A stretch of DNA of 32,000 nt from Nostoc sp. PCC 7120 = FACHB-418 (GTDB lineage Bacteria; Cyanobacteriota; Cyanobacteriia; Cyanobacteriales; Nostocaceae). The position numbers and the translations under genes were made by a program. The notes under the pieces are model-generated. The model was not told where the DNA came from. It ran no database searches and worked only from the letters and a program-made list of their open reading frames with translations. This document shows, piece by piece, positions 5,698 to 30,072 of this stretch (position 1 is the first letter of the stretch; every line of letters starts with the position of its first letter). The stretch covers positions 5,130,001 to 5,162,000 of the forward strand of contig NC_003272.1 in assembly GCF_000009705.1 (NCBI RefSeq), read 5' to 3'.

Positions 5698-6411
5698 ATG
5701 CAAACTATTAACACTTCCGAACCTGTGATTTCTATTCAAAATCTTGACCATTACTTTGGTAGTGGACAACTCCGAAAACAGGTTTTATTTAATATTAACC
5801 TCGAAATTAATGCAGGCGAAATTGTGATTATGACAGGGCCTTCTGGTTCTGGAAAAACTACCCTACTAACTTTAGTTGGTGGTTTGCGTTCTGCCCAGTC
5901 TGGGAATTTGCGGATATTAGGAAGAGAACTTACTGGTGCTAGTAGTAAACAATTAACTCAAGCAAGACGTAACAACGGTTATATATTCCAAGCACATAAC
6001 CTGCATGGTAGCCTAACAGCACTGCAAAATGTGCGGATGGGTTTGGAGTTGCAACCAGGAATTTCCACCCAGGAAATGCTCACTCGCTCAACAGAAATGT
6101 TAGAAGAAGTCGGATTAGGAAATCGGCTGAACTATTACCCTGATAACTTATCGGGAGGACAAAAACAAAGGGTAGCGATCGCCCGTGCGTTAGTCAGTCA
6201 GCCTAAAATAGTCTTAGCCGATGAACCTACAGCCGCACTAGATAAACAATCAGGGCGCGATGTCGTAGAATTAATGCAAAAATTAGCCAAAGAGCATCAC
6301 TGCACAATTCTGCTAGTTACCCACGACAACCGCATTTTAGACATAGCCGATCGCATTGTCTACATGGAAGATGGTCATCTTGTCAGGGATGCGGTGAGTG
6401 TTAATAGTTAA
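5698..6411 (+). CDS. ABC exporter ATP-binding protein, DevA family
   Basis: Walker A GPSGSGKTT, Q-loop, ABC signature LSGGQKQRVAIARAL, Walker B IVLADEPTAALD and H-loop VTHD are all present. I start the gene at ATG 5698 (MQTINTSEPVISIQNL), because the ORF-track GTG start at 5581 runs through the repeat element. Confidence 0.9.
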   Translation: MQTINTSEPVISIQNLDHYFGSGQLRKQVLFNINLEINAGEIVIMTGPSGSGKTTLLTLVGGLRSAQSGNLRILGRELTGASSKQLTQARRNNGYIFQAHNLHGSLTALQNVRMGLELQPGISTQEMLTRSTEMLEEVGLGNRLNYYPDNLSGGQKQRVAIARALVSQPKIVLADEPTAALDKQSGRDVVELMQKLAKEHHCTILLVTHDNRILDIADRIVYMEDGHLVRDAVSVNS

Positions 6412-6431
6412 TAGTCATTGGTCATTGGTCA
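6403..6431. repeat. STRR-type heptamer array (TTGGTCA family)
   Basis: The sequence reads taatagt taatagtca ttggtca ttggtca. It lies between the convergent DevA-like and creatininase-like genes and supplies the last codons and the stop of the minus-strand gene. Confidence 0.85.
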
Positions 6432-7164
6432 AAAATTCTAAATACCCGTTACTGAGTTCTTTAACAGCCAAATCATAAAACTGCTTACCATGTTCTGGTG
6501 TTGCTAAAGCGGGATTGGAACCCATGCGTCCATCTGGGTAATGTTGGCGAAAGTCGGTAGCACTGTAAATTCTATGTCCTCTGGCTACTTCTGGTGAAAG
6601 CGGTGCTTGCTTAATTGCTTCTGGGTAAACATATTGAGTCACGGCTACTTCGCTGGGTGTAGCATGAGAACCTTCTTTGTCACCGTACAATTCTTTGGCA
6701 AGTTGGTACACAGAACTGCACATAAACCAGTTGCCGACTTGACATTGTACCTTATGGGCAGAGGGAATCTGCAAGTCTTCCAGATATACGTATGTTTCTG
6801 AGAATGCAGCTTTGAGGGTAGCGATATTACCGCCGTGTCCGTTAATAAAGTAGAACTTAGTGAAACCAGCTTTGGCAAGACTAGTTACATAATCTCGCAC
6901 TAGCAAAATTAAAGTACTAGGACGCAAACTAATCGTACCCGGAAATGCAGCATGGTGTAGAGCCATCCCCACATTGATTGTAGGCGCAACGATCGCCCCT
7001 GTTGCTTCACCCACTCCATGAGCGATCGCTTCTGCACAAATCGCATCTGTCCCGATTAATCCCGTCGGCCCATGCTGTTCAGTCGAACCAATCGGCAGAA
7101 TAATTCCCGTTGATTTTTGCAAGTAGGTTTCAACTTCCTGCCATGTGCTTAAACTTAGTAACAT
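6415..7164 (-). CDS. Creatininase-family amidohydrolase
   Basis: 249 aa. The N-terminal signature ILPIGSTEQHGPTGLIGTDAICAE and the NGHGGN motif are typical of the creatininase family. Confidence 0.8.
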   Translation of the reverse strand: MLLSLSTWQEVETYLQKSTGIILPIGSTEQHGPTGLIGTDAICAEAIAHGVGEATGAIVAPTINVGMALHHAAFPGTISLRPSTLILLVRDYVTSLAKAGFTKFYFINGHGGNIATLKAAFSETYVYLEDLQIPSAHKVQCQVGNWFMCSSVYQLAKELYGDKEGSHATPSEVAVTQYVYPEAIKQAPLSPEVARGHRIYSATDFRQHYPDGRMGSNPALATPEHGKQFYDLAVKELSNGYLEFLTNDQ

Positions 7165-20547: not shown

Positions 20548-22059
20548 TTAGCGTAGCTTGCCGAATGTGTCACTCAAAGGACTTTGTTTTGAGGCTAGAC
20601 GCGCTCTCCCGGCTGCTGCCCATTCTTGTAGTTCCTGAATCTGCTCTACAGCCGTTCTGGCTAGGGGTATGATTTGACTAGCCGCTTCTAAAACATCGTC
20701 GGTAGTGAAATCTCGGTTTTGACTAAAGCCGATGTGCATCGCTTCTATTAAAGTTTGCTCGATTTCTGCCCCTGAAAAATCTGGCGTTTCGTACGCTAAT
20801 CGCTCAATGTCATAATTTTTCAAATTGTGGGGGCGCAGTCGGGATAAATGAACATTAAAAATGGCTTTTCTTTCTTCTTGACTGGGTAAACCAACAAAGA
20901 AAATTTCGTCAAACCGCCCTTTCCGCAACATTTCTGGCGGTAGGGCTTGGATGTTATTGGCGGTGGCGACAACGAACACTGGGGAAGTTTTTTCGGCTAG
21001 CCAAGTAATAAATGTGCCGAAGACGCGGCTAGTAGTTCCCGCATCACCTTTACTACCCAGTCCAGAAAAGGCTTTATCGATTTCATCAATCCAGAGAATA
21101 CAGGGTGCGAGGGCTTCTGCTACTTGAATCATTTGCCGGGTACGGGATTCTGATTCACCCACCAAACCGCCAAATAATCGTCCCACATCTAGGCGTAGTA
21201 GGGGTAAATGCCAATGATGAGCGATCGCTTTTGCGGTTAAGGATTTACCAGTACCTTGAATCCCCACTAATAATAAACCCCGTGGGTGTGGTAATCCATA
21301 TTGGCGGGCGCGTTCACTAAAGGAACCACCACGGCGTAATAGCCAATCTTTGAGGTTATCTAGTCCTCCTATGTCAGAAATCTGCTCTGTGGCGGGGTAA
21401 AAGTCGAGGATTTGGGTTTGGCGGATAGTTTGGCGCTTTTCCTCCAAAACTAAATCTACGTCTTCTGGTTGCAATTCTCCGTGGGTAGCGATCGCTTTCG
21501 CTAAAACCCGCCGAATCCTTTCCATCGATAGCCCTTGGCAAGAACGCACCAAATCATCTGTAACTTTCCCAGAGAGGGAATTACCAGTTGCTTGCAGTAG
21601 ACGTTCAATCTCTATTTTAATTTCTGGAGCGTTAGGTAAGGGGAACTCGACAACCGTTAAAATTTCAGTTAAATCGTCAGGTATGGCGATGCGTGGCGAC
21701 AATAGGACGATGTTTTTCGGTTGTGACTTCAGCAGTCTGGCTAGGTTGCGGAGTTTGCGAGCGATCGCTACATCATCTAAAAATCGATGATAATCTCGCA
21801 GAATAATTACTGCTGGTGCTGATGCTGGTATTTTTTCTAAAAATTCTAAAGCTTGCAGGGGATTACGCCGCCCAAAACCCGCGTCATTGGGGTTACCTTG
21901 ATACCCATCGACAAAATCCCAGGTATATACTGGGCGATTACCTTGATTGGCTGCTTCTTCGCGGATAGCGGTTTCTACCCGTTCTTCTTCATAGGTAGGT
22001 ATGTAAATTAACGGATAACGCGCTCTCAGTAGCAGTTTAAACTCTTCACGGAAGTTCAT
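20548..22059 (-). CDS. AAA+ family ATPase (single classical AAA module in the C-terminal half)
   Basis: Walker [14 protein letters not shown], Walker [10 protein letters not shown], sensor-1 region VVATANN and arginine-finger region [11 protein letters not shown] are present. Confidence 0.88.
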
Positions 22060-22195: not shown

Positions 22196-22230
22196 TGACC
22201 AATGACAACTGACAACTGACTAATGACTCA
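22196..22230. repeat. STRR-type heptamer array (TGACCAA/TGACAAC/TGACTAA)
   Basis: The units read tgaccaa tgacaac tgacaac tgactaa tgactca. The array contains the stop codon and the last codons of the 22220-22876 ORF. Confidence 0.9.
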
Positions 22231-22876
22231 TAACAAGTTGTTGCTTAAAGTAGCTCTTGGGTAAGAAACAGCGATCAGGTAAGAAAGGATTATCAATATA
22301 TTGGGATAAGAAAGTGCCTGGTTGGACTCTATGACAGAATGGCGGCACAATTCCCCAATCTTCTGCTAACCAAATCCAGTATCCTATTTCGATTTTGCCG
22401 TAGCTGGATACAGTTAAAATTTCCCCGACGCTATTGTTGATAGATACTAGCTCAGGGGATGATTTAACTTCAGTTAATAACCAGGCTAATTCATCTACAG
22501 AAAAGTAATAACCGTAATCAGCCGCTACTTTGGTAAACTGCTGTGGATTTTTTGCTGACAGTAATTGATCTTTAAGCGACGGTGTTTTCTGTGCTAAATC
22601 AAATAAATTCCAAATCTGCTTCCTGGTAACGAGGAACCAAGCAATTTCTTCTGCTCTTAAGTAATATCCGTTATCTACTACTAAGTTAATAAACCCTTCC
22701 AGGGTCTCAACTTCTCCTAATTGACTTTTTAAGAAAAAGTTTTGCTCTACAAAAGCAAAAAAATCAATAACTTTCTGCCACGTTAACTTATTAGGAATAT
22801 TATAAAGATTTATTTCTTTTTTCCAAAAGATATATTTTTCTTCTTTCAGAAAGAAATTCCATATTTGGTAATACAC
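22220..22876 (-). CDS. Hypothetical protein with two tandem Nif11-like modules
   Basis: The internal repeat is FLKSQLGEVETLEGFINLVVDNGYYLRAEEIAWFL versus SLKDQLLSAKNPQQFTKVAADYGYYFSVDELAWLL. This is the Nif11-domain pattern (helix, then xLxxkL, then GYxfsxeEl). The start codon is GTG with no internal Met nearby, so the start is uncertain. Confidence 0.5.
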   Translation of the reverse strand: MYYQIWNFFLKEEKYIFWKKEINLYNIPNKLTWQKVIDFFAFVEQNFFLKSQLGEVETLEGFINLVVDNGYYLRAEEIAWFLVTRKQIWNLFDLAQKTPSLKDQLLSAKNPQQFTKVAADYGYYFSVDELAWLLTEVKSSPELVSINNSVGEILTVSSYGKIEIGYWIWLAEDWGIVPPFCHRVQPGTFLSQYIDNPFLPDRCFLPKSYFKQQLVMSH

Positions 22877-23316: not shown

Positions 23317-24786
23317 TTACTTTGAGCTTATTGTTAAATCGCGGAGGTAGTAAAAGCGATCGCTCCTCCAATCATTACCTTTAACTCTGCCTAAATAGCC
23401 TGTTAAAGGTGATGAAAGTTCTATCAAAATCTCGTGCATTTCCTCTGTTTTTAGTGGTTGTGGTGGATGTGAGGCGAAATAAGCACCATGTAGAGCTTCG
23501 GCACCAGCAGATTCTGTCCCTGAATTTTCTAGATAATTGTTAACAAGCTGAATAATATGCGATCGCAACTTGATAGCTTGTTCAACTTTATCAATATATT
23601 CATTAATTTTATAGTCAATCTGTCCAGGTTTTAGATACTTTCGCAATTCAATTAAGTTGATAGCACCGGGATATTTGACTTTGAGTTCAACTAGTTTTTG
23701 TAAAGTCATTACATTTATAATACTGATTTTAGATATTTCAGCAGAGTCTTTCAGGTTTTTAGTAGGTTGACCTGGGCCAATAATTAATTTTACTGCTTGA
23801 AGGTAATTTTCTTTAAGATGTCTTTTGCCAATCCTATCTAATTCTTCTACTGCACGATCGGGAATACTTTTACCTGCTTTACATTCGCAAACCAAAGGGT
23901 AAGGTTGTGAACAGAATAAATCTAAGCCTCCAGCACCACCTTTATAAGCATATTCAACCTTAAATCCTAAAAATTCTAGACTTTGACGTGTAATATTTTC
24001 AAAGTCTGTACCAGCTTGGTAATTGCTTTTTTTCTCGTCCAGCTCTATGCTACGATCGCCTAACTTAGCAATGTCATTTATCCAAGCTAAATCTGTATTT
24101 AGTGTTTGAATCTGCTTAGTATTCTTCCAACCTAAAAATATTTGAATATCATCGTCTAATTCTTTAGCTCCTGGGTTACTGATTGCAAGTGGGGCTAGAA
24201 AACTCTGTAATTCATCTAATTCTGGATGCTGTGGGGGTTCTATTTTTTCTAGTTGTTGTTTGCGTCGTTCGAAGATGCTATCTTTTAAAATTGGTTTATC
24301 TTCAGAACCAGCGATGTTAGGTAAACTTACGAATTTACCGAATTTTTCTTGAATATTGGCATCAACAGTAACTTTACACTCCTGGGGTAAATGGTAAACA
24401 CGCAGGTAAACCAGAAAAATATTCTCTTGTTTCTGTATGATTGCTTCAAATGCTTTAGGTGTCCATATTGTTAATTGAGACAAAACATTTAAAGGTTTAG
24501 TCTTATCTATAACTTGGCAAAGTTCACATCTTGCCCAAGCTTTAATAAACACAGTTTGAGAAGAATGTTGTTGAATATTAGTTCTGGCGACGGATAATAA
24601 ATTTGCACGATAGTATTGCTCGATTGAAAGGGTATCAATTGAGATATCAGCAGGATAAAGTAAAAATTTCTGCCCAGGACGAATAAACATCTTAGGCATA
24701 GCTGCTATTGTCCGCCCCTGTATTAAAGCTTCAATCTCAGGGGCAGGTAAACACAGCGCTGTTGGAATTGAAAACAGCTGGTTCAT
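23317..24786 (-). CDS. Two-domain protein: possible PUA/ASCH-like (DUF1802-like) N-terminal domain plus a C-terminal PD-(D/E)xK (Mrr/restriction-endonuclease-like) nuclease core
   Basis: The nuclease signature is GTDFENITRQSLEFLGFKVEYAYKGGAGGLD(289)LFCSQPYPLVCE(301)CK(303)AGKS, covering nt 23857-24015. The N-terminal 135 aa (LPAPEIEALIQGRTIAAMPKMFIRPGQKFLLYPA...IFLVYLRVYHLP) resemble DUF1802/ASCH-like proteins as I remember them. The start is 10 nt after the upstream stop. Confidence 0.65.
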   Translation of the reverse strand: MNQLFSIPTALCLPAPEIEALIQGRTIAAMPKMFIRPGQKFLLYPADISIDTLSIEQYYRANLLSVARTNIQQHSSQTVFIKAWARCELCQVIDKTKPLNVLSQLTIWTPKAFEAIIQKQENIFLVYLRVYHLPQECKVTVDANIQEKFGKFVSLPNIAGSEDKPILKDSIFERRKQQLEKIEPPQHPELDELQSFLAPLAISNPGAKELDDDIQIFLGWKNTKQIQTLNTDLAWINDIAKLGDRSIELDEKKSNYQAGTDFENITRQSLEFLGFKVEYAYKGGAGGLDLFCSQPYPLVCECKAGKSIPDRAVEELDRIGKRHLKENYLQAVKLIIGPGQPTKNLKDSAEISKISIINVMTLQKLVELKVKYPGAINLIELRKYLKPGQIDYKINEYIDKVEQAIKLRSHIIQLVNNYLENSGTESAGAEALHGAYFASHPPQPLKTEEMHEILIELSSPLTGYLGRVKGNDWRSDRFYYLRDLTISSK

Positions 24787-24796
24787 TTCTATTTAG

Positions 24797-26701
24797 CTAT
24801 AGGGTGAGGTCGATATGGTCGCTAGTCGCAAAGCTTTGAGGAATACTAATAGGTAATCCATCATCAGTTAAATTAGTCGGTTCTTGACCAGAAGGATCAC
24901 TAAGAATTTCTCGGATTAGAGGATTATTAATTGCTATTTGTTTTTGTTCAATAAAATCAAATATTTGTTCTTCTGTCAGTTCGTAGCTTTCGCTGTTATA
25001 CCAAACAAAATAAATAGCTAGGAGAGGTTTAATGTCTTGGCTTTGTAAGCCTACCCACTCTCCACCTTTCTGCTTTAGCAGTGTTTTTAACTTCTCTCTA
25101 GCTAATGCTGCACCTGGGCTAATATTTTTAGATCGAACTAGGCAACCACGAGTTAAATCAAACTTTTTGTAATCAACTAATCGCTTTAATGCAGCACCTA
25201 TATACGTACCATCTTTCTGCACGACAGCCACTCCAATCCGTTGTTTTCTGTTTTTGCTAACAATTCTGAAATCTATATAGCCCTGGTCTGCTGTACTAGC
25301 TTCAATTTCTTCAATTTCTTCAATGATTACTCCTTCTAAAGTTTCACCTACTAAACTATTGAAAGCCAGCCAAAGAGCATCGGCAATAGTTGCGTCCTCT
25401 TCCATTAATGAATCAATAGAGGCTTCAACATTTGCTAATTCACTATCGAAGTATGGTTTAACAGGATGTAGGATTTGTGCTGGAGGGGTAGGTATTATCC
25501 TTTCTCCACTCAGAGGCGAAGGAAGGAAAAAATTTTCTGCACACCATTTTAAAACTGATCTAATAGTAGGTTTACCTCTGCCAAGCTCTCTGAGTTTAGT
25601 TTCATCAAATGGGTAGAGAGTATGAGGAGGATTATGTTCATTCTCTTGATAAAACTCTTTTAACCATTGCTGAACAAGAGCAACAATATCATCAGAATTA
25701 AGATATTTTAATGAGATTGGTTGTCTATCAGATTGTTCACTTACTAATCTATCAATTACTGCCTCAGCTTGTGGTAATGCCCTAATTTGCTCATTCCAAG
25801 TTTCGGGATACATCGATAGTAGTAAAACACCTTGTTTGAGGTTATTGTATAAATCCTTTGTTAAATTGGCAATTATTTGTGCTGCTGTAAAACCTGTGTC
25901 TGAAATCTCTGCAATATCTAATTCATCAAAGCAAATCACTGGAACTCTATAATGGCTAGTTATATCTAATATTTGCCGCACATTACTTAATGCTTCAGCC
26001 TCCCTGTCTTCATTTTTAGGATTTGGTAAACCCAATACATCAGATTGTGATCCAGTGATCTCTAAACCTGATAGCCAACAGGTCGCATAATGGGCGTGTG
26101 CTGTAGAAAGTGTCCACAAAATAGCTCGAATTATATAAGGATTAGTAACATCATGCTTAATTTTTAGCACTGTTTCTGTTAATCCATCAATTGTTTTAGT
26201 CGAATACTTATTTAACCAAGTTGGATAGATATTACTGATGTATTGTTGTGGTGTATATTGACAATTCTTAGCCTCATTAATTAAAGCTGCGGCTATTTCT
26301 TGCCACTGCATTACTTTTTGACTACCAAATGCTCTTAGGCTACAAGCAACAGTTTGTTGAAATTGATATTTTATTTGATTCAAGTTGTCATACTTACTCA
26401 TGTAAATGAATAAAGTATTCTCTTCTGTCTGTAAGCGATGCCGGATACGACTAATGAGATGGCTTTTACCTAATCCCTTTTCAGCAGTTATCGTGATGCC
26501 TACAGTTTCACGTTTTCCATTATGGATTTTTTCAACTGCATCAAAAACTGCATTAGAAGCATGAGCATTAATTGAGGGAACATCAGGATAACTTTTACCC
26601 CATATTTGTTGTGGTCTGACAACAATATGTCCAGCAAAAGGGTTTTGATTTCTAATGAGTTCATCAATGGTAGATGTAGTAGCAATCATGGTGTTATACA
26701 T
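24797..26701 (-). CDS. P-loop NTPase of ORC/Cdc6-/STAND-like AAA+ layout with a large uncharacterised C-terminal region
   Basis: Walker A is GITITAEKGLGKSHL (Lys79, nt about 26465-26467) and Walker B is VPVICFDELD (Asp259/Glu260, nt about 25922-25927). A lid-like segment LNSDDIVALVQQWLKEF follows. The protein is 634 aa. Confidence 0.7.
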   Translation of the reverse strand: MYNTMIATTSTIDELIRNQNPFAGHIVVRPQQIWGKSYPDVPSINAHASNAVFDAVEKIHNGKRETVGITITAEKGLGKSHLISRIRHRLQTEENTLFIYMSKYDNLNQIKYQFQQTVACSLRAFGSQKVMQWQEIAAALINEAKNCQYTPQQYISNIYPTWLNKYSTKTIDGLTETVLKIKHDVTNPYIIRAILWTLSTAHAHYATCWLSGLEITGSQSDVLGLPNPKNEDREAEALSNVRQILDITSHYRVPVICFDELDIAEISDTGFTAAQIIANLTKDLYNNLKQGVLLLSMYPETWNEQIRALPQAEAVIDRLVSEQSDRQPISLKYLNSDDIVALVQQWLKEFYQENEHNPPHTLYPFDETKLRELGRGKPTIRSVLKWCAENFFLPSPLSGERIIPTPPAQILHPVKPYFDSELANVEASIDSLMEEDATIADALWLAFNSLVGETLEGVIIEEIEEIEASTADQGYIDFRIVSKNRKQRIGVAVVQKDGTYIGAALKRLVDYKKFDLTRGCLVRSKNISPGAALAREKLKTLLKQKGGEWVGLQSQDIKPLLAIYFVWYNSESYELTEEQIFDFIEQKQIAINNPLIREILSDPSGQEPTNLTDDGLPISIPQSFATSDHIDLTL

Positions 26702-26722: not shown

Positions 26723-27406
26723 TCAGACTTTTAACAATTTGGCGTAGCAGCGTAATCCATCTAATACCGTAGTGATGGAATCTTCTATCTTGTCAGGCGC
26801 GCTATCTTCTACACTTCCGCCTTGTAGTTGTAAAATATCGTCAGCCTGCATTTCTAGCAGCCAATCATTAAATTGAGTACGATTTAAACGATCGCCTATT
26901 TCTCTCCTAATCCGATAAATCGGTACTAGATGATTGAAGTTGTATTCATAGTTCAACTTGTCGTAGACTTCCAGTACAGTTGATTTAAACTCGTCATAGG
27001 ATGCGTAGCCCGTTGCACTCTTCACGCCGTTGACTGATTTAGCTTGTTCAGTCACAGAAACATTTATCTGACTAATCCATTTCAATAGAGCATTCGCCGC
27101 CCAAGTTCCGACAATAGTTCCTTCAAATTGGAAATTACCAGTTCTTAAACCCTCGCCCAATACCTCTAAACCCTTAGGAGATGTCAAAAAGTATCCTTGT
27201 TTAGAGCCTGCGATTACTCCGTGGTTTTGCAAGTCTTCAAATAAACTGTGATAATCTGCTGCCTTCTTGCCTTTAGTTAAAATTCGTTTTGTAAGTAGTC
27301 CTTTCTTAATTTCCTGCTGCGTTCCTCCCAAATCCCACAAAGCTAATAGGAGCCGAGTTTTAGCTTGAGTTTCTCCGCATTGGAAGCTAGTGATTTTTGA
27401 TACCAT
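26723..27406 (-). CDS. Hypothetical protein with two possible winged-helix modules; first gene of the three-gene operon
   Basis: 227-aa ORF. The segments LFEDLQNHGVIAGSKQGYFLTSPKGLEVL and LVPIYRIRREIGDRLNRTQFNDWLLEMQADDILQLQGG have helix-wing patterns. I see no catalytic motif. The stop lies 21 nt before the next start. Confidence 0.6.
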   Translation of the reverse strand: MVSKITSFQCGETQAKTRLLLALWDLGGTQQEIKKGLLTKRILTKGKKAADYHSLFEDLQNHGVIAGSKQGYFLTSPKGLEVLGEGLRTGNFQFEGTIVGTWAANALLKWISQINVSVTEQAKSVNGVKSATGYASYDEFKSTVLEVYDKLNYEYNFNHLVPIYRIRREIGDRLNRTQFNDWLLEMQADDILQLQGGSVEDSAPDKIEDSITTVLDGLRCYAKLLKV

Positions 27407-27720: not shown

Positions 27721-27990
27721 ATGGTGGGTGATTTTTTCCGTAAAGCGAAAGATTTTATGGGTGGTTCCAGAGACGAAGAACGTGAGGAAGAGCGTGGTTA
27801 TCAGGAACGCTGGGGAGAAAGCGATCGCCGTTCCCGCAATGACCGTGATGAAGATGAAGAGGACGAGGAGGATTATTCCGGCGATGTCCGCCGCTCCCGT
27901 GATGACCGCTATGACGACGAAGAAGATGAAGAGGAGTACTCTGGTCGTTCTGGCAGAGACCGCTATGACGACGAAGACGAGGACGAATAA
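27721..27990 (+). CDS. Hyper-acidic, Arg/Asp/Glu-rich low-complexity repeat protein (89 aa)
   Basis: AGGAG (27709-27713) lies 7 nt upstream of ATG 27721. The protein has about 2.5 imperfect repeats of R(S/D)R(N/D)DR(D/Y)(E/D)DEEDEE(D/E)YSG. Three other overlapping ORFs lack a ribosome-binding site and look like low-complexity mirror frames. Confidence 0.55.
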   Translation: MVGDFFRKAKDFMGGSRDEEREEERGYQERWGESDRRSRNDRDEDEEDEEDYSGDVRRSRDDRYDDEEDEEEYSGRSGRDRYDDEDEDE

Positions 27991-28021: not shown

Positions 28022-28056
28022 CCAATCACCAATTACCCATTACCCATTACCAATTT
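28022..28056. repeat. STRR-type heptamer array (CCAATTA/CCCATTA)
   Basis: The units read ccaatca ccaatta cccatta cccatta ccaattt. The array contains the stop and the last codons (..EIGNG) of the pentapeptide-repeat gene. Confidence 0.85.
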
Positions 28057-28681
28057 CTAATATTGTCCCTACCAAACAAGCTTTATCTGTATTCACACCT
28101 TGTAAATTTGCACCTTCCAACTCTGCACAGAGTAAGTTAGCCCCGGTCAAATTCACTCCCGCCAGATTCGCCCCCCGTAAATCGGCTTCTTCGAGATTCG
28201 CTTCACTCAACAACGCCCCTTGCAAATCAGCACGGCTTAAGTCTGCGCCTTTCAGGTTAGCACCACTTAGGTTAACACCTCGCAAGTCAGCGCCCCGTAG
28301 ATCAACGCCTTGTAAATTGACGTTCATTAAATTAGCGCCACTCAAAAAAGCACCAGCCAAAGCTACACCACTAAGTCTAGCTCCCATCAGATTAGCACCA
28401 CGCAAATTACTACCCCGCAAGTCTGCCCCTGTTAAATCTGCCTGCATCAAATTGGCTCCCATCAAGTTTGCCCGCAAGTCAGTTTCTTGGAGAGTTGCAC
28501 CCATCAAATTTGCACCCTCTAAATGTCCACCTTCGAGTTTAGAGCGAGTAAAGTTAGTACCCACAAGGTGAGCGCCAGCTAAATTAATGCGGCTTAAATC
28601 CAGTTGAGAAAGTTCCTCATCTTCTAAATTCGCCCCTGGCAGTTGTTTGAGTTGTCCTAGTTTAATAGCGTCAATATTCAT
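28040..28681 (-). CDS. Pentapeptide-repeat protein
   Basis: About 35 consecutive A(D/N)LxG-type pentapeptides run through the protein (ANLMGATLQETDLRANLMGANLMQADLTGADLRGSNLRGANL...). Its start ATG overlaps the upstream stop as ATGA at 28678-28681. Confidence 0.95.
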   Translation of the reverse strand: MNIDAIKLGQLKQLPGANLEDEELSQLDLSRINLAGAHLVGTNFTRSKLEGGHLEGANLMGATLQETDLRANLMGANLMQADLTGADLRGSNLRGANLMGARLSGVALAGAFLSGANLMNVNLQGVDLRGADLRGVNLSGANLKGADLSRADLQGALLSEANLEEADLRGANLAGVNLTGANLLCAELEGANLQGVNTDKACLVGTILEIGNG

Positions 28682-30072
28682 TGTGGGTAACTACTCATCT
28701 CTTCACTAGTCTTGCTCTGGCTATCCCATCGGGAATCAAGTAGCCACATACCGATGCTGACTTTTGGTGTCATTAGGGGTAAGTCGAGTCCTTGTTGCAA
28801 ACCCATGACTAATAAAAATAGGGCATCTATTAGTTTAGGGTCAAAGCGGTTTGCTTGCTGTCGGCATTCTTCCAAGGCTTGCACAAATATTTCTTGCCGA
28901 TTTTTGCTAGCGGCTCTTTTTTGGTTAACTTGCCACTGAAAGTCTGCAACTAACGCCAAAATTCTCGACTCTAGAGGAATTTCGTCACCAGCTAAACCCG
29001 CAGGTTCCCCTGTCCCATCCCACCACTCAGTTTGATGAGTAATAATTTGAGCTACTGCCCGTAATCTTGACATTTTGCGTAATGCTTGCGCTCCTGGGAC
29101 TAAAGAGCAAGTCAAAGGACAACTGGGGGCTGATTCTTGGTGGTGAGTTGAAGTTCCAGGTGTAAAAATACTCTCTGCTTTTTGCAGTGGATCTATGCGG
29201 TGCAACAATCCTGCTAGTTTTAATCTTTTAATCTGCCATGCAGGTAAATCCAAAAGCTGTCCCAGGGTTTCTGCTAAGGCTGCTACTTCTGTAGCGGCTT
29301 GTGGATTTGTGATATCAGCCAAATCCATCAGTTGCGCCATCCGCAGAAATGCCTGGATTTCGTTGGAAACCAAGTTACTATCTAAGGCTTGATGACGCAC
29401 GGCGGCGGGGATAGATAATTGTTCTTGTCCTATTTGCAGATAATCTACAACACGGGAAACAACTGTGGTCAGGTCTGTTGATGCGATCGCACCCCTTCCT
29501 ATTTCCTGATCATGAATCAGGAGTTTCTTTGCTAATTCTGGATTGTATTTTTGAATATGAGCGATCGCTAACTCTGCCGTTTCTTTAACTAGTTCTGGCT
29601 CAAAAGTCCACAAGCCATAAAATTTACGCTCGACATCAGAAGCCGGTCTGCCACCTACCCCATAATCAGCATCAGACAACTCTTGACAAAGTACCATTGC
29701 CGTGTATTTAGGCGACAAAATAATCAAATGCCATTCTTGAGCTACTGGGTCAGATGGATCTAAAGCCACTAAATCGACATTCGGCATTTGGCTAGTGGGA
29801 TGTTCAGCAAAGCCTGCATCCGGTGCTGCCATAATAGCAATTTGGCGACTGCACTGAGCGATGTCTGCATATCTTTCAGCCTCTTGCAAATACCACTTAC
29901 CCCGTTGGAAGGCAGTAATTACCAAAGGTGAATTCTCATCCGCCAATATATGGTCTTCTAAAGCATGACAAAGCGCAACCAGGGTATTTTTGTAATACAC
30001 CCCGAATCGGACTGGTCTGGTGCTGTAGCGATGGGACGCTTCTAGCTGTTGTAGAATTGAACCTTCTAACAT
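28678..30072 (-). CDS. DICT sensory domain protein with a degenerate HD-GYP-like C-terminal domain
   Basis: The N-terminus (YYKNTLVALCHALEDHIL...PLVITAFQRGKWYLQEAERY...EWHLIILSPKYTAMVLCQE) has the DICT pattern. The C-terminus has LLHRID in place of LLHDIGK and HQTEWWDGTGEPAGLAGDEIPLESRILALVADF in place of HHERWDGSGYPxGLxGxxIPxxARIxAVAD. Confidence 0.7.
   Translation of the reverse strand: MLEGSILQQLEASHRYSTRPVRFGVYYKNTLVALCHALEDHILADENSPLVITAFQRGKWYLQEAERYADIAQCSRQIAIMAAPDAGFAEHPTSQMPNVDLVALDPSDPVAQEWHLIILSPKYTAMVLCQELSDADYGVGGRPASDVERKFYGLWTFEPELVKETAELAIAHIQKYNPELAKKLLIHDQEIGRGAIASTDLTTVVSRVVDYLQIGQEQLSIPAAVRHQALDSNLVSNEIQAFLRMAQLMDLADITNPQAATEVAALAETLGQLLDLPAWQIKRLKLAGLLHRIDPLQKAESIFTPGTSTHHQESAPSCPLTCSLVPGAQALRKMSRLRAVAQIITHQTEWWDGTGEPAGLAGDEIPLESRILALVADFQWQVNQKRAASKNRQEIFVQALEECRQQANRFDPKLIDALFLLVMGLQQGLDLPLMTPKVSIGMWLLDSRWDSQSKTSEEMSSYPQ

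Follow-up and report, generated by a model that had tools for sequence, protein, structure and literature searches.

A DUF1802 nuclease gene linked to a variable ATPase in a chromosomal cassette of filamentous cyanobacteria, a candidate conflict system

The window analysed here is a stretch of 32,000 nucleotides from Nostoc sp. PCC 7120 (NC_003272.1, positions 5,130,001 to 5,162,000), and our subject is a gene in it that encodes a protein of 489 residues with a nuclease domain. The gene is the last of a cassette of three on one strand, in the order All4300, ATPase, nuclease, with intergenic gaps of 21 and 10 nt; the ATPase stop codon ends 10 nt ahead of the nuclease ATG. An identical protein is deposited under the name 'DUF1802 family protein [Trichormus variabilis]'. 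Hundreds of cyanobacterial genomes carry proteins annotated as DUF1802, a family still lacking an assigned function; a literature search for 'DUF1802' met the name in an unrelated context only. Counting from all4300, the 227-residue protein, the locus tags of the nuclease and ATPase genes should be all4298 and all4299. A scan for promoters and terminators scored no better than on shuffled sequence. The genes, and the parts of the nuclease, are as follows.

26723..27406, minus strand: All4300, 227 aa, first gene of the cassette, with the size and name of NP_488340 all4300
24797..26701, minus strand: P-loop AAA+ ATPase (ORC/KAP/AAA_16-like, on weak Pfam hits), 634 aa, probably all4299
23317..24786, minus strand: nuclease gene, 489 aa, an open reading frame from ATG to stop; DUF1802, linker, Mrr-type nuclease, helical region, winged helix
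24253..24759, minus strand: DUF1802 domain, residues 10-178, from Pfam; a beta-barrel, ASCH/PUA-like by prediction, in which the helical insert at about 50-77 is optional
23752..24093, minus strand: Mrr_cat-type PD-(D/E)xK core, residues ~232-345, from Mrr_cat matches in relatives, BFVD and EndoMS/NucS
23857..24015, minus strand: catalytic motif block, residues 258-310, with helix FE263, GGAGGLD289 and VCE301-C-K303, from sequence and conservation
23503..23751, minus strand: helical connector, residues 346-428, with AlphaFold2 helices 359-371, 378-382 and 392-422
23335..23502, minus strand: C-terminal winged helix, residues 429-484 (helix, helix, beta-hairpin PLTGYLGR...DRFYYLRDL), from AlphaFold2 and Foldseek

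An earlier note, made from the sequence alone, had seen in this gene a possible PUA/ASCH-like reader domain joined to an Mrr-like PD-(D/E)xK core, and had read the catalytic motif from residues 258-310 (nt 23857-24015), AGTDFENITRQSLEFLGFKVEYAYKGGAGGLDLFCSQPYPLVCECKAGKSIPD. This and all the other peptides it quoted are correctly placed, as are E263, D289, E301 and K303, each of them conserved in 103-105 of 108 diverse relatives. Counted over these relatives, which are representatives of clusters at 50% identity, E263, E301 and K303 are kept in 103, D289 in 105 and C302 in all 108, and the pattern G, F, E, G-G-x-G-G-x-D, P, E-C-K is invariant in our alignment A5. The motif is intact in the window protein and lost in six family members. 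In an AlphaFold2 model, built on 21 homologues with a mean predicted local distance difference test score (pLDDT) of 80, strand 289-291 contains D289, strand 298-302 contains E301, and K303 comes directly after the second of these strands.

We assign the core to the Mrr type because relatives hit the Pfam family Mrr_cat, the motif is conserved and the predicted fold agrees, the window protein itself having no Mrr_cat hit at E<=1. A match at E<=0.01 was found for 18 of 38 diverse relatives (best E 2.5e-6), and one relative, P0165, exceeds the cut-off of 21 bits with a score of 32.2. Structure comparison returned 'Restriction endonuclease' and 'type IV Mrr domain' entries from BFVD, a library of viral structures (prob 0.98-1.00, E 6e-4 to 1e-2), and in Foldseek EndoMS/NucS (5gkj) superposes at a root-mean-square deviation of 3.3 A over 103 columns. 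Searches of PDB sequences gave nothing significant, either with the whole protein or with a profile of the nuclease, for which the top entry was a 'restriction endonuclease' (9wuf, E = 0.15) consistent with the motif. P0165, a protein of 685 aa from Lyngbya sp. CCY1209 (L090, 7001-9058), is also unusual in its layout, with one DUF1802 followed by a tandem duplication of the nuclease and C-terminal module.

The winged helix that the earlier note had thought possible at the C terminus is present in the model, with helices at 429-438 and 447-457 and strands at 465-468 and 477-480. Foldseek matches it to the C-terminal winged helix of Cdt1 (3a4c, prob 0.97, root-mean-square deviation 3.7 A, 86 columns) and to those of ORC/Cdc6, and S459, P460, G463, F478 and R482 are conserved within it. 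Two stretches of this half of the protein vary in their own way. Residues 304-360 (23707-23875, minus strand), the end of the core and start of the connector, take discrete allelic forms just past K303; their pairwise identities are bimodal, at either 40-50% or 70-100%, with three sequence types in the alignment. The C-terminal residues 421-489, which include the winged helix, are also variable, independently of the ATPase classes described below.

At the N terminus the earlier note had drawn a small barrel of DUF1802/ASCH/PUA type over the first 135 residues or so. The domain and the barrel stand, but they extend over about 10-178. The Pfam family DUF1802 (PF08819) is matched over its full length (model 1-174 of 174, E 4.1e-42, 144.4 bits against a cut-off of 25), a score that on sequence cannot be chance, and all 38 diverse relatives match it as well. 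The model has strand 5-14, helix 15-22 and strands 28-30, 40-46, 78-92, 124-140 and 152-160, at pLDDT of about 80-90. This topology fits the published description of the PUA/ASCH core, a small barrel with a helix following strand 1 (PMC7641849). Consistent with it, ASCH proteins are among the top Foldseek matches in the PDB, including ZmASCH (5y6b, prob 1.00, target template modelling score 0.56), TTHA0113 (2dp9, score 0.63) and the ASCH domain of TRIP4, and BFVD also returns entries named 'ASCH domain containing protein', which are phage ASCH proteins. The output gives no query coordinates, and the matches were assigned to the N-terminal domain by their aligned length (~140-190 columns; targets of ~125-150 aa); all are weak (E>=0.015) and come from a predicted model.

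Taken as a group, ASCH proteins (ZmASCH 5GUQ, TRIP4 ASCH 8YFJ, TTHA0113 2DP9, YqfB 1TE7) are the best structural neighbours of DUF1802, at prob 0.96-1.00 and target template modelling scores of 0.5-0.63. DUF1802 is, however, larger (~170 aa, with the helical insert) and has no sequence or profile similarity to them: a DUF1802 profile found nothing significant among PDB sequences and no ASCH chain, and hhalign of DUF1802 against YqfB (sequence checked against 1TE7) gave a probability of 0.1%, no signal. The ASCH signature, which Iyer in 2006 is said to have given as GxKxxExR, is represented by its Gly alone (G24), the K, E and R not being kept. Apart from one Gly, the conserved positions of DUF1802 are hydrophobic or aromatic: W108 is invariant, Y59, F41 and F124 are nearly so, and F172, in a helix past the last barrel strand, is invariant too. 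The helical insert (~50-77) is missing from three relatives, and the domain is the most divergent part of the protein, with a mean identity of 33% against 49% for the nuclease. An ASCH-like fold is thus probable from the model, while homology to ASCH is unproven. The earlier note had named the lack of a predicted N-terminal barrel, or poor conservation of D289, E301 and K303, as grounds for giving up its proposal; the predicted barrel is present and the three residues are conserved. A three-domain architecture of ASCH-like barrel, Mrr-type core and C-terminal winged helix is therefore supported.

The second gene of the cassette encodes a P-loop ATPase, whose main features are these.

26462..26485, minus strand: Walker A, A73-EKGLGKS80; K75, G76, G78, K79 and S80 invariant in 26 relatives
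25922..25939, minus strand: Walker B, V255-ICFDE260; C257, F258, D259 and E260 invariant, on model strand 253-258
25049..25396, minus strand: C-terminal alpha-beta-beta-beta-alpha-beta domain, residues ~436-551, from AlphaFold2 at pLDDT 80-95

Pfam hits of the window ATPase to AAA_22, KAP and AAA_16 are all below threshold; other ATPase hits are to NPHP3_N and DnaA-like families. A fused orthologue, P0218, lies above the cut-offs for AAA_16 (40 bits) and KAP (28 bits). Database names of relatives include 'KAP NTPase' and 'Orc1-like AAA ATPase', and the structural neighbours of the model are generic AAA+ proteins (FtsH, ORC4 and TnsC in Foldseek). Residues ~436-551 show weak Foldseek matches to EcoT38I (prob 0.77), PaqCI and Rpb5, and in the model they may, tentatively, form a restriction-endonuclease-like fold that lacks the conserved catalytic set. 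The ATPase tail, residues 602-634 (24797-24895, minus strand; DPSGQEPTNLTDDGLPISIPQ...), is highly conserved, yet its predicted structure is disordered (pLDDT ~30), and DUF1802 or another partner could dock on it. Neither the ATPase profile nor that of All4300 found anything significant among PDB sequences.

All4300 matches no known family in Pfam or NCBIfam, with winged-helix Pfam hits below threshold; it is probably a DNA-binding protein made of two winged-helix-like halves. Its Lyngbya orthologue was captured on a promoter-DNA bait by Jones et al. in 2009, and in the same study the GST-tagged orthologue gave no DNA shift and a related protein, 7968, bound DNA non-specifically (PMC2799420).

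Linkage of the three genes is strict. The same gene order occurs in 80 of 80 Nostocales loci retrieved, and also in Limnothrix and Lyngbya at 31-40% identity; All4300 is found in 80 of 83 loci. The family is narrow, with 252 cluster representatives in 1.84 billion proteins and relatives in 367 of 185,579 species genomes, and its named members are all cyanobacterial and mostly filamentous. This distribution agrees with the listing of all4300 in 2010 as a signature protein of Nostocales and Oscillatoriales (PMC2823733). In most Nostocales a lipoprotein gene, mdh/Ldh and Fpg stand on one side of the cassette (Fpg in ~25 loci) and PGI, LivH or a gene with a Nif11 domain on the other. The cassette has decayed in three genomes (locus L018, 5574-6995; L034, ~6177-6899; L067, ~6679-7000), which indicates that it is dispensable: in L018 (Nostoc flagelliforme FACHB-838) a deletion has fused All4300 in frame to the ATPase, and two Nostoc metagenome-assembled genomes have truncated ATPase genes.

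Fusions tie the ATPase to the nuclease more directly. In four independent clusters of several members each (P0202, P0218, P0230 and P0243/P0275), an orthologue of the ATPase is fused to the nuclease and winged helix in proteins of ~690-897 aa. The nuclease part corresponds to query residues 231-486, DUF1802 is absent, and the ATPase part is 44-47% identical to the window ATPase over more than 600 residues (47% over 622 aa). It follows that ATPase and nuclease work together, and that DUF1802 is dispensable in these proteins. One fusion gene, a solitary one, has toxin-antitoxin genes on either side (HicB and PIN/DUF2281), and no homologue of All4300 was found up to 8 kb away. The nuclease and winged-helix module is also found behind ParB_N or TPR domains, and together with the fusions this suggests a constant effector, nuclease plus winged helix, preceded by an exchangeable part.

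Another way to view the cassette is through its variation at one chromosomal address. In a sister strain the same locus has flanking proteins 94-99% identical to those of the window, yet the three cassette proteins, in gene order, are only 67%, 40% and 66% identical; in the nuclease the catalytic region is 93-100% identical and DUF1802 30-43%. The pattern of hypervariability is general. Across hundreds of genome pairs whose PGI, Ldh or Fpg are at least 90% identical, the mean identity of the ATPase is 52-55%, and it falls below 55% in ~76-82% of these pairs. Between the identity of the ATPases and that of the flanks there is no correlation (rho -0.04 to 0.27), whereas All4300 (rho 0.67-0.90) and the nuclease (rho 0.36-0.77) follow the flanks. 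The ATPases fall into five allelic classes (29, 20, 20, 4 and 1 members) with 40-52% identity between classes, and the classes do not follow phylogeny. With All4300 identity held fixed, DUF1802 identity is 0.82 within an ATPase class and 0.55 between classes (0.68 and 0.57 in a further comparison), while the linker, catalytic core, residues 304-360, helical region and winged helix show no dependence on ATPase class. ATPase and DUF1802 thus appear, from sequence comparison, to behave as one swappable unit, which suggests that DUF1802 matches the nuclease to its cognate ATPase or that both co-determine target specificity. Alleles that diverge deeply and ignore phylogeny while the locus stays fixed are typical of the specificity determinants of conflict systems, and not of housekeeping genes.

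We think there is an even chance that the cassette encodes an Mrr-type nuclease gated by its ATPase and aimed at foreign nucleic acid. The three genes would then make up a conflict system, fixed in the chromosome and confined to filamentous cyanobacteria, in which the nuclease would be the effector and the ATPase with the ASCH-like DUF1802, presumably in physical contact, would form a variable unit for recognition or coupling. This unit might sense an invader protein, DNA of foreign origin or some unusual feature of a nucleic acid; modified bases are a possible trigger. On triggering, nucleotide-dependent assembly would license the Mrr-type PD-(D/E)xK domain for cutting DNA, its likely substrate, with the conserved winged helix, and possibly All4300, keeping the complex on DNA. 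A conflict system is suggested by the phylogeny-independent alleles, the intact nuclease, the obligatory ATPase, the fusions and the lack of a methyltransferase, no such domain being found in the cassette or the neighbouring window genes.

The building blocks of this arrangement and its logic, a sensor domain with an Mrr_cat nuclease and an NTPase, are of kinds already known (PMC6765204, PMC11037411). What appears to be undescribed is the combination of All4300, an ORC/KAP-like ATPase and a DUF1802-Mrr_cat-winged-helix protein, together with its confinement to filamentous cyanobacteria, the constancy of its chromosomal address and the allelic classes of ATPase and DUF1802. With Mrr of E. coli (Pfam Mrr_cat, PF04471) the nuclease shares the fold, the motif GG-x-GG-x-D ... 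(E/Q)-C-K, a winged helix in the same polypeptide and the lack of a cognate methyltransferase. Mrr, however, carries its winged helix at the N terminus and acts alone, whereas the protein here has DUF1802 at the N terminus and the winged helix at the C terminus, and its gene is strictly linked to those of an ATPase and of a 227-aa protein; moreover, relatives pass the Mrr_cat cut-off and the window protein stays below it. MspJI joins an SRA-like domain to a PD-(D/E)xK nuclease, and VcaM4I and TspA15I are modification-dependent enzymes of EVE-HNH type. In these enzymes, as in the predicted structure of the window protein, a PUA-superfamily barrel at the N terminus precedes the nuclease domain, but the SRA, EVE and YTH readers of the class have demonstrated base-flipping pockets, whereas DUF1802 matches only ASCH structures, and those weakly. 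MspJI itself is a poor match (prob 0.18 in Foldseek). They are also sporadic and mobile, unlike the syntenic cassette. Fusions of PUA, Mrr_cat and McrB have been catalogued (PMC6765204).

McrBC and the type IV systems that pair Mrr_cat with an NTPase resemble the cassette in that a P-loop AAA+ NTPase is genetically coupled to the nuclease, in some relatives by fusion, and the variable part lies on the NTPase side. The NTPase here is nevertheless of ORC/KAP/AAA_16 type and not an AAA_5 GTPase (Pfam and NCBIfam scans of the ATPase gave no AAA_5, McrB-type hit), the nuclease is Mrr_cat and not McrC, and All4300 is extra. STAND/KAP NTPase-effector immune proteins include, for example, Avs with Mrr- or Cap4-like nuclease effectors. 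Points in common are, in the fused relatives, an AAA_16/KAP-type NTPase with a PD-(D/E)xK effector, and further the high polymorphism of the NTPase and a TPR-nuclease relative, P0229. The cassette differs in that the window effector is a separate protein, the fusions have the nuclease C-terminal to the NTPase, and the window ATPase has no TPR or other repeat sensor; PADLOC models for Avs match none of the cassette proteins. A last comparison, noted in 2009, is of All4300-type proteins with RcaD and of the neighbouring ATPases with RcaG, on weak BLAST similarity and the same gene order (PMC2799420). In Calothrix (Fremyella) PCC 7601, where these proteins act in chromatic adaptation, a gene for a small DNA-binding protein is likewise followed by an ATPase gene, but the published similarity is marginal (22% identity and E = 0.2 for an All4300 orthologue with RcaD, 23% identity for its ATPase; PMC2799420) and RcaD has 285 aa to the 227 of All4300. 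A hidden Markov model search of all retrieved loci found no distant RcaD/RcaG-like paralogues.

Several observations weigh against a defence system. The synteny is with housekeeping genes, mdh and LivH flanking the cassette even in Limnothrix. There is no homologue in 72,556 plasmids or 50,697 phage records, and no enrichment of defence genes was found among the rarer neighbours of the cassette. Its status as a clade signature, in Nostocales and Oscillatoriales (PMC2823733), points the same way. No defence model in PADLOC 2023 or NCBIfam 2026 matches any of the three proteins: in PADLOC the nuclease has a weak CARF_PDDEXK match (2.5e-4), while the ATPase and All4300 have none, NCBIfam gives far sub-threshold P-loop hits only, and PHROGs has no informative match for the three. 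The fold matches of the ATPase are all weak (E>=0.006), and the co-variation of DUF1802 with the ATPase could be plain genetic linkage, given that their coding regions abut. In these respects the cassette looks more like a vertically inherited core function than a mobile defence system. We conclude that the locus is old and vertically placed, because its neighbours are conserved, plasmid and phage homologues are lacking and the neighbours show no defence enrichment. The idea of a mobile island was rejected, since clustering of neighbours gave a widely conserved neighbourhood of mdh, Fpg, lipoprotein gene, cassette and PGI/LivH.

These points bear on the rival explanations. The closest to the earlier note is a type IV, modification-dependent enzyme in which DUF1802 would flip and read a modified base, such as a hypermodified base of a cyanophage, the Mrr-type domain would cut and the ATPase would provide McrB-like translocation or licensing. 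A PUA-superfamily domain joined to a nuclease is the standard layout of such enzymes, and the structural matches to ASCH and Mrr and the lack of a methyltransferase fit it. The invariant W108 and the nearly invariant Y59, F41 and F124 could form an aromatic pocket, and rapid change in DUF1802 is what an arms race over base modifications might produce. Against this, profile-level ASCH similarity is lacking and the signature is reduced to G24, DUF1802 is missing from functional-looking fusions and replaceable by ParB_N or TPR, it co-varies with the ATPase instead of evolving independently, and the ATPase is not McrB-like. ASCH activities, to our knowledge, are limited to RNase, N4-acylcytidine amidohydrolase and plain double-stranded DNA binding. 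The DNA of PCC 7120 is itself heavily methylated, which narrows the possible targets. Fusions of PUA-Mrr_cat-NTPase and wH-Mrr_cat-NTPase (wH, winged helix) have been catalogued (PMC6765204, PMC11037411), but a reader role of ASCH is still unconfirmed by experiment (PMC11037411). That statement, the fusions without DUF1802 and the missing signature weaken the base-reader proposal. The type IV-like reading of the earlier note is partly supported: its three-domain architecture holds, while DUF1802 is no more than a putative reader of modified bases. We regard such an enzyme as rather unlikely.

The conserved neighbourhood and the absence of plasmid and phage homologues would instead suit a housekeeping complex with no immune role, acting either in RcaD/RcaG-like transcription control or as a nuclease of repair or chromosome maintenance. 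The cassette is very widespread in Nostocales, and an orthologue of All4300 was pulled down on promoter DNA, its weak likeness to RcaD, that of its ATPase neighbour to RcaG and the shared gene order also fitting such a role (PMC2799420). Housekeeping genes, though, do not show 40% identity beside flanks of 94-99%, nor classes that ignore phylogeny; degraded cassettes (L018, L034, L067) and the six family members without catalytic residues argue the same way, as do the marginal RcaD similarity and the failure of the tagged orthologue to shift DNA. This alternative strikes us as distinctly improbable. The deeply divergent classes at one fixed locus across the order would also be expected of a selfish addiction or allorecognition locus, in which the nuclease would be a toxin restrained by its cognate ATPase and All4300 and the alleles would be kept by balancing selection, serving incompatibility or the discrimination of kin, among filaments or following an exchange of DNA. 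Cognate-specific pairing of DUF1802 and ATPase, and the fusion gene among toxin-antitoxin genes, fit this, but there is no sign of toxicity or of a delivery route, a nuclease without an export signal cannot act between cells, and a polymorphism of defence specificity would give the same pattern. The chance that this is the explanation is very small. More specific is the proposal that all4300-all4299-all4298 is an undescribed, ancient immune or incompatibility locus at a fixed address, whose ATPase and DUF1802 unit is exchanged among at least five classes under balancing selection, with RcaD and RcaG as paralogues of the first two genes and the ASCH-like domain as a module for partner matching or sensing and not a base reader; taken whole, we hold this to be doubtful.

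For the DUF1802 family the gain is a domain anatomy, a catalytic motif, two obligate partners and a fixed locus with a hypervariable ATPase. In the model organisms Nostoc and Anabaena, restriction is a notorious obstacle to gene transfer. If the cassette, as we favour, is a nuclease system against foreign nucleic acid, it would constitute a lineage-wide barrier to foreign DNA or phage in both genera, and would show an ASCH-like domain at work in a machine of NTPase and nuclease. The All4300 orthologue, once a candidate regulator of a natural-product cluster, is now tied to a nuclease operon, a warning not to take DNA pull-downs of this kind as evidence of transcriptional regulation.

Divergent from the cassette, at 27721-27990 on the plus strand, is an open reading frame of 89 aa that is extremely acidic, Arg-rich and of low complexity (MVGDFFRKAKDF..., then D/E-rich repeats). 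In at least 21-25 of 80 loci a homologue that shares the N terminus but has other repeats (DPYGDPADQY) stands upstream of the cassette, and the 89-aa protein may be either a linked neighbour or a DNA-mimic-like partner. At 22220-22876 (minus strand) lies the gene of a 218-aa protein that has two Nif11 domains. It stands after the cassette in 23-30 of 80 loci, even where other flanks differ; the protein is 94% conserved between the sister strains and thus not hypervariable. At 20548-22059 (minus strand) lies a gene for a 503-aa AAA ATPase, all4296 (PMC8147232), with IetA hits in PADLOC (7.5e-24) and CDC48/FtsH-type hits in NCBIfam. It was rejected as a fourth component, being 99% identical in the sister strain and unlinked to the cassette elsewhere, and for this AAA protein a housekeeping role is more probable than one in defence. 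A pentapeptide-repeat gene at 28040-28681 (minus strand), just upstream of the cassette region, overlaps by 4 nt a DICT/CHASE6_C/HD_5 signalling gene at 28678-30072 (minus strand); both proteins are 94-98% conserved in the sister strain and apparently unrelated to the cassette.

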